Positions 1 through 2,862 of a DNA stretch of 6,822 nucleotides are shown piece after piece. Each line of letters starts with the position of its first letter. Position 1 is the first letter of the stretch. The stretch comes from Azolla caroliniana. Lineage: Eukaryota; Plantae; Polypodiophyta. The translations under genes and the position numbers were made by a program. The notes under the pieces are model-generated. The model saw only the letters and a list, made by a program, of their open reading frames with translations. It was not told the origin of the DNA and did no database searches. The stretch spans positions 1-6,822 of the forward strand of contig JBHGNT010001499.1 in the NCBI GenBank assembly GCA_043228905.1, read 5' to 3'.

Positions 1-626
1 GACAAGATTCTCATCTTCCTCTCATCATGTCTCCGGCATACCCTTTCGACTTTGGCCCAATCCTCGGTAAGACCGTTCGCACCGTCATCGTCTTCGAGTT
101 CGATCCCGATGTCCATCCTTTCTTTTCGATCGATCGATTTTACGAACATTAAGACTTTATCTTCTCCCACCAATCTTCGTTCCCGCTCCGAGAGTCGAGC
201 AAAACGATGCTCGAACTCTAGGAACGCTTGCGTTGCACTTCGGTGAGTCTTCTCCGACGCCACCCATTCGTCGAATTCTCGTCGATCTCGTCCCGTCCAT
301 CTCTCATAGTCATATGCCTCCCGTAAAGCTTCTTCAAAGGACTCCCATGTCGAGTTTTGTTGTTGTATCTTGTGGATTCTCTCTTGTAGTTCGTCCGAGG
401 CCACCCGACTAAAGGATATCACTTGCAATCCTTCCGGTATCCGATATTGCATCATCTCCGCCTTATATTCACGTAGGTAGCGTGACACACCCTTACCGTT
501 GAATTCCCCGTTTCGTCGCAGAAGCCGCTCTACTGCCGCCTTCATCTCCGACATCGCACGTTGTTCTTGTTGCATCCGCTCAAACATTATCATCATCATG
601 TTCATCGCCTCTTGTTGATTCTCCAT
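1..626 (-). CDS. gag: Gag (or Gag-Pol N-terminus) of the LTR retrotransposon, partial
   Basis: Manual translation from ATG at 626 gives 208 codons with no stop up to the window edge: MENQQEAMNMMMIMFERMQQEQRAMSEMKAAVERLLRRNGEFNGKGVSRYLREYKAEMMQYRIPEGLQVISFSRVASDELQERIHKIQQQNSTWESFEEALREAYDYE...DWAKVERVCRRHDERKMRIL. It has capsid-like F-x-G-x-x-V-x-x-Y and TW-x-x-F-x-x-x-L motifs and starts 16 nt after the PBS. It is probably missing from the ORF track because there is no stop in the window. Confidence 0.88.
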   Translation of the reverse strand, partial: MENQQEAMNMMMIMFERMQQEQRAMSEMKAAVERLLRRNGEFNGKGVSRYLREYKAEMMQYRIPEGLQVISFSRVASDELQERIHKIQQQNSTWESFEEALREAYDYERWTGRDRREFDEWVASEKTHRSATQAFLEFEHRFARLSERERRLVGEDKVLMFVKSIDRKERMDIGIELEDDDGANGLTEDWAKVERVCRRHDERKMRIL

Positions 627-896: not shown

Positions 897-1252
897 TATA
901 GTTTATTAATTGGTGTTTTTTAGAAACATATCCAGTTTCCAAATATTTTTCACACCTATTACATTGTGCTCCCCATCCTTATGTAGTGATGGGAGAGACT
1001 AAGCATAGCTACATGCTTTTTTTTTCTAATATGTTCATGCACACTAAATGTGCATGTGATGCTTTTCTAATCCTTGCTTTTATTTGCTAAATATAGTGCT
1101 CATGCACGCTAGATGTGCATGAGTCACTTTTTAGTCGCTTGCGTTTTTCTATAAAATATTCACGCACTCTAAAAATACATGATTTACCTTTTAATAAAGG
1201 TAGGCGCAAATAAAGCACTTATAGTTATTAAATCTATTTATAGAACACTAAA

Positions 1253-1339
1253 TATAAGGTAGCATAATGGTAAAGTTGAGGTTTGGCTACGTGGAGGTAC
1301 AGGGTTCAAATCCTGCCCTATGCACGTGATAAATATTTT
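1253..1339 (+). promoter_or_regulatory. tRNA-like Pol III internal promoter (A-box + B-box) inside LTR copy 1, antisense to the element
   Basis: A-box TAGCATAATGG 1260-1270; B-box GGTTCAAATCC 1303-1313 within a CAGG/CCTG stem; partial acceptor-like pairing 1253-1259 with 1316-1322; TTTT at 1336-1339. Confidence 0.6.
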
Positions 1340-1426
1340 GATATATTATTTTATTTATTTATATGTAATTAAATCGGTTATATTATTTTTTACTTTTTCA
1401 CGTAGTGTACGAAATACACTACGACA

Positions 1427-1896
1427 GCGTGCATGAGCACTATATTTAGCAAATAAAAGCAAGGATTAGAAAAGCATCACATGCATATTTAGTGTGCATG
1501 AACATATTAGAAAAAAAGCATGTAGCTATGCTTAGTCTCTCCCATCACTACATAAGGATGGGGAGCACAATGTAATAGGTGTGAAATATTTGGAAATTGG
1601 ATATATTTCCGAAAACACCAACCGATTAATATAATCGTGGGATTCACGAAAATAATATAATCTATACTTGTGGGATTCACAAGTTTCTTATATCTTTCTT
1701 TCAATCTAAATACATATTCTTATCTAAATATTGATTAATCGAATACAATACACTCGTGGGATTCACGAAATTTCTATCTCTCTTTCTAATAATCTATTCA
1801 TTACTAGCCTCATCTCATATTCTTCTTTCTCCTAGTCCAAAACCTCGGCGGTTCCCACCCGACTCACGCAACGATCCGGAGCCGAAAGGCATGACA
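1427..1896 (+). repeat. 3' portion (470 bp) of an LTR of the same family (solo or 3' LTR), copy 2, interrupted by the element at 1-1426
   Basis: Reverse-complement homologue of 665-1109. It ends GCCGAAAGGCATGACA at 1896 and is followed by copia coding sequence, not by a PBS. Confidence 0.9.
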
Positions 1897-2130: not shown

Positions 2131-2862
2131 TATCGTAGTGTATTTTGTACACTACATGAAAAGCTTATAAAGTAACGTTTTAGTAAATATGAAGAAATAG
2201 AAGAAAATGTCAAAATAAATAATACATGCATAGGGCAAGATTCAAACCTTGCACCTCCATGTTAATAATGTAATGTCTTACCGTTGCACTAGCATTTCAT
2301 TAGTGTTAAAAAGTAAATGTTCCACATAGAAAGGTTAGTTCACCTAGGATAAACTTTAGTTAAAAGAAAACGCATGCTAAAAACAAAAGCTACGCATGCA
2401 CATCTAGTGTGCATGAAAGCTATAGTTGATAAAAAACGCACAAGTTAGAAAAAGCATGATCACTTTAGGTTAAGCATATAGTCTATCTATAGGAAAAAGC
2501 ATGGAGTCTATAGTTAGAGAAGAAAAAGCATGGATTGCTAAGACTCCCTCATCACCACAAAAGGATGGGGAGCACAATGTAATAGGGGGTGAAATATTTG
2601 GGAAATTGGATATATTTCCTAAAACACCAATTAATAAACTATACTCGTGGGATTCACGAGATTTCTATATCTTTCTCTATCAATCTAAATACATATTCTT
2701 ACATAAATATTAATCAATAAAATACATTATGCTTGTGGGATTCACAAGTTTCTAATCATCTATTCATAATTAGAATCGTCTCAAATTCTTCCTCCTCCTA
2801 GTCCAAAACCCCAGTGGTTCCCACCCGACTCATGCAACGATCTTGCGCCTAAAGGCACGACA
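2131..2862 (+). repeat. Solo LTR (732 bp), copy 3, inserted in copia pol
   Basis: Starts TATCGTAGTGTATTTTGTACACTAC (TG>TA mutation) and ends AAAGGCACGACA. No PBS or PPT is adjacent. The flanks GCAC / ACGC are compatible with a GCGC TSD, and removing the LTR plus 4 bp rejoins the copia frame (IIEQGH-HEGRMFILE). Confidence 0.92.
2212..2298 (-). promoter_or_regulatory. Second, more decayed copy of the tRNA-like A/B-box cassette in LTR copy 3
   Basis: On the - strand: A-box TAGTGCAACGG (2291-2281), B-box GGTTTGAATCT (2248-2238) inside a GCAAG/CTTGC stem, 32-nt spacing, TTTT at 2215-2212. Confidence 0.5.

Follow-up and report, generated by a model that had tools for sequence, protein, structure and literature searches.

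An antisense, tRNA-derived A-box/B-box/T-run unit in the U3 of Phygy-like gypsy LTRs in an Azolla caroliniana contig and related loci

LTR elements of the window

The stretch of Azolla caroliniana DNA analysed here, referred to in full as the window (6,822 nucleotides), contains a decayed Ty1/copia element together with three LTRs that belong to a single family. The main elements are as follows.

3..626, - strand: gag-like open reading frame (ORF), still open where it reaches the window edge, with 99% identity to the 673-aa protein P0079
644..660, - strand: primer binding site (PBS) of tRNA-Trp type, able to pair with the 3' portion of a tRNA fragment (CCA anticodon) at locus L021
665..1426, - strand: LTR1, a 5' LTR of 762 bp (TGTCG...CGACA), Phygy-like Ty3/gypsy
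1427..1896, + strand: third LTR (LTR3), 3' two-thirds, interrupted by the LTR1 element, its unit-bearing end lying outside the window
2131..2862, + strand: solo LTR of the other subfamily, within the Ty1/copia element, with a decayed 4-bp target duplication

LTR1 occupies an NCGN site (1427-1430) within another LTR of its own family, and the 4-bp empty site of the solo LTR is bridged by one contig from sequencing run X21. The ORF at 3-626 has Retrotrans_gag look-alikes at 0.86-0.89, taken as a lead only. P0079 extends to the polypurine tract (PPT), and since so near-identical a protein ends there, the LTR1 element is, judging by its sequence, likely a gag-only member of the family. More widely, gag-like ORFs of 400-720 aa (that of the window on the - strand and P0079-P0095) carry long low-complexity tails running to the PPT and have LTRs in common with integrase-coding elements; the set likely represents gag-only non-autonomous families.

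Integrase sequence with relatives in Riccia and Adiantum precedes LTRs of the window's family at L023 and L042. A Pfam search returned no chromodomain after the integrase, and the L023 ORF extends to the PPT. NCGN follows 48 of the 53 LTR ends that have no PBS after them. The family, which belongs to a non-seed plant, is called Phygy-like on the basis of three features, a 4-bp NCGN target, a tRNA-Trp PBS and no chromodomain. It shares all three with Phygy, a non-chromovirus Ty3/gypsy lineage described from Physcomitrella, for which Neumann et al. 2019 (PMC6317226) list the NCGN target and the tRNA-Trp PBS; the available portion of that paper mentions no tRNA-like LTR segment.

Several further features of these LTRs were recorded. 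The adjacent inverted LTRs are 99% complementary at 945-1110 versus 1426-1589 and ~83% complementary at 760-864 versus 1697-1801, an unevenness reflecting either mosaic LTR subfamilies or local gene conversion between the arms. The motif around GTGGGATTCAC (787-805 and 875-893 in the window, with matching sites elsewhere) is present in two or three copies in each LTR and ranks with the best-kept sequences there. At L021:1567-1620, a sense-oriented tRNA-Trp 3' fragment spanning the anticodon arm to the T arm immediately follows an LTR end, with no clear target duplication in its flanks.

Anatomy and distribution of the antisense unit

The plus strand of the window carries, by sequence inspection, an A-box at 1260-1270 and a B-box at 1303-1313 with a 32-nt spacer, followed by TTTT at 1336-1339, in agreement with the initial annotation. 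LTR1 reads from 1426 to 665 on the minus strand, so that the unit at 1260-1313 lies antisense within U3, again as first described. Its parts and its second copy are listed here.

1238..1348, + strand: nearly indel-free block comprising the unit, its AT-rich upstream edge and the terminator, delimited by sliding 54-nt windows
1260..1270, + strand: A-box, fitting TRGCNNARYGG in sequence and column counts
1271..1275, + strand: D-loop-like TAA(A/G) directly 3' of the A-box; GGTAA is invariant in three families
1276..1291, + strand: middle, equivalent to the anticodon arm, constant in length, its letters differing by subfamily
1292..1302, + strand: variable-loop-like AGGT (invariant in three families) and 5' strand of the T-arm-like stem
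1303..1313, + strand: B-box with C56 present, fitting GGTTCRANNCC; 11 of 11 majority letters are common to both subfamilies
1314..1327, + strand: conserved 3' trailer, able to pair as a hairpin with 1289-1297; between-subfamily identity 0.90
1336..1339, + strand: T4 run, the first after the B-box and a candidate Pol III terminator; 1337-1339 are T in 17 of 17 copies
2212..2298, - strand: second copy, in the solo LTR, with A-box 2291-2281, B-box 2248-2238 and T4 2215-2212

Both boxes are at consensus in LTR1 and not in the solo LTR, where C56 of the B-box has changed to T. The spacer of the solo copy is likewise 32 nt and its TTTT is in place; the third G reported before its B-box is in fact an A, which leaves the spacing unaffected. 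The two copies also agree with the earlier description in keeping short T-arm-like stems around a middle that cannot be aligned. The 3' trailer contains CATGCA/CACGTG-type motifs, which we take to be RY and G-box elements.

A-box and B-box at tRNA spacing with a downstream T-run form the layout of a type-2 Pol III unit. A relaxed scan for an A-box and a B-box 28-36 nt apart gave 17 distinct hits in 125,330 nt (window plus loci), with a spacer of 32 in 16 and 31 in one, and 0 hits in each of 20 shuffles. The region upstream of the unit is AT-rich in all copies; a TATA-like sequence lies 19-29 nt before the A-box in 12 of 17, against that AT-rich background, and a CAA motif upstream of the unit is present in just 1 of 17. 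A and B boxes, an AT-rich upstream region and poly(T) make up the plant tRNA gene layout as given in the available text of PMC13578239. A separate TATA-like motif, TATAAGG in 10 of 15 rows, lies ~270 bp further into the LTR than the unit.

Copies for comparison came from 67 metagenome contig loci, which may stem from related species rather than from the window's genome, and were anchored on an R/U5 motif chosen independently of the unit. In fifty loci the LTR is truncated or interrupted short of its 5' end; the other 17 keep both LTR ends. The unit is present in 15 of these 17 complete LTRs (10 of the 15 have the strict two-box pattern), in both LTR subfamilies, and in gag-only (L013) as well as integrase-coding (L023, L042) members. 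Two 5' LTRs with PBS-like sequence next to them, L008 and L031, have lost it through different internal deletions.

Homologous sequence extends beyond the window's family. A second LTR family (L012, L014), which shares the PBS type, has other ends and encodes a more distant gag, carries the unit antisense near the LTR 5' end. The claim that the cassette is common to diverged LTR copies therefore holds within the family and reaches past it. Six copies from three groups align without gaps from A-box to B-box, and 16 of the 20 invariant columns fall inside; the cross-family invariants are tRNA-promoter positions (A14, GGTAA, AGGT, GGTT, A58 and C61). No match to the unit was found in the related-family LTRs of L002, L049, L068, L069 and L070, of which just L069 is complete, and the unit is thus patchy in the clade.

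Some loci stand apart. L027:914-1020 holds a third tRNA-like unit with a spacer of 32, a few bases inside a TGTCA-starting LTR-like insert that interrupts a gag gene; this insert is a single copy ended by the contig edge. L012:306-665 is a chimeric LTR joining a second-family U3 to the R/U5 end of the window's family, with A/B matches on both strands around a palindromic B-box, and is the sole locus with boxes on both strands. Recombination can thus move the unit between families, and cross-family sharing need not imply long separate maintenance. A viral contig collection gave no match to the searched sequence, and a genome contig search gave no match to the cassette and three distant relatives. 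These relatives, L068, L069 and L070, are Phygy-like retrotransposon contigs in two bacterial genome assemblies, most likely plant contamination.

Conservation and tRNA likeness

The clearest conservation signal is length stability. The length of 1260-1313 is altered in 2 of 16 copies. For 12 other 54-nt stretches the corresponding figure is 8-15 of 16, and for the R/U5 end it is 3 of 16; the only 54-nt windows with three or fewer length changes in the 16 copies start at 1238-1295 or 666-700. The distance from the B-box to the first T4 run is 22 nt in 16 of 17 copies and 23 nt in the other. Partial copies (L003, L015, L055) were excluded everywhere and the two copies without the unit (L008, L031) from the conservation counts; L053 was left out of between-subfamily identity and of the length-change and window-rank counts, and L004 of these last counts only.

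Letter conservation is uneven along the unit. In a comparison of 7 versus 11 copies, between-subfamily identity is 0.75 in the A-box, 0.83 in the D-loop, 0.76 in the variable loop and 0.84 in the B-box, with 0.50-0.77 elsewhere in 5' U3; the best-kept portion is the 3' trailer, outside both boxes. In the middle (1276-1291) identity is 0.39 between subfamilies versus 0.86 and 0.74 within them. Majority differences, with p-values that all overstate independence because the copies are related, mark the middle as less conserved (10 of 16 columns versus 55 of 208 outside, p=0.004) and the unit minus its middle as more conserved than other U3 columns (5 of 51 versus 55 of 208, p=0.01), whereas the two boxes alone do not differ significantly from non-cassette U3 (2 of 22 versus 55 of 208, p=0.12); an alternative p=0.012 for the boxes rests on three hand-picked divergent flanks. 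The comparison with neighbouring U3 thus bears out the unit around its middle and not the boxes by themselves. With transitions masked, the A-box window ranks 13th of 417 U3 windows and the B-box 49th; by raw identity the A-box ranks just 77th of 417. Other U3 motifs, a palindrome at 1095-1124 and the 5' hairpin, are equally conserved. Retention of the boxes, their spacing and the terminator position, as had been proposed from two copies, is seen across both subfamilies and the second LTR family.

The B-box CG is kept in only 4 of 17 assembled copies and C56 is lost in 10 of 17, a pattern that methylation decay following insertion would produce. In five public DNA runs, with contigs matched at 80% likeness, those with an intact B-box CG account for 66-84% of the summed depth, a measure that is not equal to copy number. 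Of 30 bins in run X12, labelled as a different species, that of the B-box has the greatest depth, above the R/U5 end; in run X20 the B-box half is well covered and the A-box half of the LTR1 subtype is not.

The unit is tRNA-derived in geometry, yet not a tRNA. The Rfam tRNA model aligns end to end to 1253-1323 (model positions 1-71) at 14 bits, below the gathering score of 29 (E 1.3), and gives no match in copies L026, L027 and L012. Among 19 copies, acceptor, D and anticodon stems are paired in 55.6%, 57.9% and 43.2% of cells with no excess covariation, and the T-arm-like stem in 93.6%. ARAGORN finds no tRNA gene at the unit in the window or among the 60 of 67 loci scanned; its one true tRNA in those 60 is a tRNA-Leu(CAA) gene at L031:2378-2461, less than 1 kb from an LTR without the unit. 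With cloverleaf stems unpaired, no ARAGORN call and an Rfam score below threshold, a functional tRNA gene is rejected. Box geometry and the end-to-end alignment do favour the suggested origin from a tRNA or SINE head, the capture itself being our inference.

Two other roles were considered for the unit and its strand. A self-encoded primer is rejected, as by inspection the 3' end of the unit is not complementary to the PBS, and a sense-strand promoter is unlikely in the window's LTR family, where the reversed B-box lacks G53 and has no A-box upstream. The tRNA-derived heads of SINE2 elements share with the unit their A and B boxes at tRNA spacing and a degenerate cloverleaf; here, by contrast, no body, tail or own target duplication was seen, and the unit travels within the LTR. 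All 24 model hits are in LTR context, at loci that had been selected by an LTR motif. Contig depth in runs X1 and X2, which is not copy number, shows no excess at the unit over neighbouring LTR bins of the kind that a free SINE would suggest.

Proposed function and known systems

A tRNA-derived A-box/B-box/T-run module is fixed antisense near the outer U3 end of Phygy-like gypsy LTRs. Because spacing and terminator are fixed while the middle is free, selection appears to act on a promoter-terminator unit, and from its sequence the module is probably a working Pol III unit. Its antisense orientation, and a T-run that ends it within U3, preclude transcription of the element, and since a backward, self-terminated unit cannot drive its host, its retention points to another use, in anti-silencing chromatin or as antisense RNA.

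Barrier activity of tRNA genes and TFIIIC is established in yeasts. We tentatively favour, ahead of the alternatives below, a tDNA-like barrier beside the Pol II promoter, in which an ancestral LTR would have captured a tRNA gene or SINE head. TFIIIC would bind intact copies such as LTR1, an RNA of 85-90 nt would run from ~1253 to the T-run, outward and away from the TATA-like motif, and TFIIIC/Pol III chromatin would be held as a tRNA-gene-like barrier next to the element's likely Pol II promoter. Since the middle can vary freely and the cloverleaf has not been retained, the benefit would lie in occupancy or in transcription as such, not in the RNA product. In its broadest form, which we consider rather doubtful, a coding plant gypsy lineage would have turned a tRNA gene to its own use, as a mobile Pol III insulator that faces outward: each LTR would carry a transcribed tDNA mimic shielding its Pol II promoter from silencing, swapped between LTR families and scattering Pol III/TFIIIC sites genome-wide.

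The unit may instead be a passive relic, a SINE head or tRNA pseudogene of an ancestral LTR that was spread by recombination and looks conserved through co-opted Pol II factor sites or recent homogenisation. The boxes tested by themselves agree with this, as do the best-conserved trailer, whose CATGCA/ACGT motifs recur elsewhere in the LTR, the chimeric LTR at L012, the several relatives without the unit and the damaged B-box of most assembled copies. A relic leaves unexplained the constancy of spacing and T-run when the middle, flanked by two conserved blocks, has turned over, and the coincidence of the cross-family invariants with tRNA-promoter positions; nor does depth in X1 and X2 point to a free SINE of the unit's sequence. 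We regard this explanation as unlikely.

A little less probable still is selection of the Pol III unit for its product, a transcript of 85-90 nt with complementarity to the 3' U3 of the genomic RNA, which would act as a brake in antisense, give rise to small RNAs or mimic a tRNA. The fixed terminator suits such a product. Pairing in the 3' hairpin around the B-box reaches 89%, its covariation score exceeds those of 497 of 500 shuffles, and departures on the cassette strand favour G-U over A-C (48 versus 6 cells; 30 versus 6 without one invariant pair); this hairpin was derived from the sequences on which it was scored, and C>T decay also yields G-U pairs. There are precedents in foamy viruses, which produce Pol III pri-miRNAs from U3 (PMC3993851), and in Ty1, where antisense RNAs restrict transposition (PMC12786077), both as described in the accessible parts of these papers. 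Against an RNA product, folding z-scores are weak and equal on the two strands (mean -1.45 versus -1.44; -0.2 for the window copy), the 5' hairpin is found in just 4 of 19 copies at the 5% level, the cloverleaf is lost, and the RNAalifold consensus is in a partly different register from the 3' hairpin. A conserved two-hairpin dumbbell is unsupported across copies. No run recorded as RNA contained the stretch. Two runs guessed to be RNA bear neither way, X21 giving three contigs (one a 257-nt piece across the unit into U3) and X22 none.

That the unit is a landing pad or decoy, drawing in elements that integrate upstream of Pol III genes, is very improbable: LTR3 in the window is indeed interrupted ~150 bp upstream of the expected A-box position, but the NCGN target rule obeyed by the family's insertions (48 of 53) explains the nesting there, and by eye the left break points of interrupted LTRs do not cluster, lying anywhere between ~25 and 620 nt upstream of the R/U5 anchor.

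Returning to the barrier that we favour, the family would supply many natural copies, with the B-box intact or not, for testing such activity in a plant. In the sources available to us, plant LTR Pol III promoters are known only as drivers of tiny non-coding elements, shown for Cassandra and proposed for Helenus. The initial annotation knew of no description of such a unit, which was too strong a claim, since tRNA-derived LTR segments are known from Helenus (PMC10886601); the narrower point stands, as a mainly open-access literature search (few subscription journals or Repbase reports covered) found no antisense tRNA-like unit in coding plant LTRs, and the main text of PMC6786969, as far as available, held nothing relevant. 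The accessible text of PMC10886601 mentions further Repbase LTRs with tRNA-like parts, left unanalysed, so that such parts may be commoner than published.

Helenus TRIMs (TRIMp3, Kojima 2024; PMC10886601) have, like the unit here, tRNA-derived sequence with conserved boxes A and B inside the LTR. According to the part of that paper available, they are non-coding elements of 311-1263 bp, whereas the unit described here sits in 670-760-bp LTRs of gag- and integrase-coding elements; LTR1 by itself measures 762 bp and has a gag ORF after it, and L023 and L042 encode integrase, so that these are not short non-coding TRIMs. Their tRNA segment is in sense orientation in four LTR entries and is proposed to transcribe the element (PMC10886601), in contrast to a unit that is antisense to PBS and gag and ends in a T-run, 22 nt beyond the B-box. 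Cassandra, the plant exception for Pol III transcription in the consulted portion of a 2025 review (PMC12786077), likewise carries, within the LTR of a plant element, a Pol III promoter and terminator that derive from an RNA gene; it differs in that its promoter is 5S-derived and of type 1, drives its own RNA, and belongs to a non-coding element (PMC10886601, PMC12786077).

The U3 cassettes of foamy viruses, as covered by the available text of PMC3993851, share with the unit a short Pol III arrangement of A-box, B-box and T-run that a coding retroelement carries in its U3 and that is distinct from the Pol II genomic transcript. They are dispensable in some isolates, are transcribed and yield miRNAs (PMC3993851), whereas the unit here is known from its sequence, keeps tRNA geometry and shows no miRNA-type precursor. 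By analogy, and on the parts of these sources available, foamy-virus U3 Pol III cassettes appear to be the best functional counterpart of the unit, and Helenus the closest known system.
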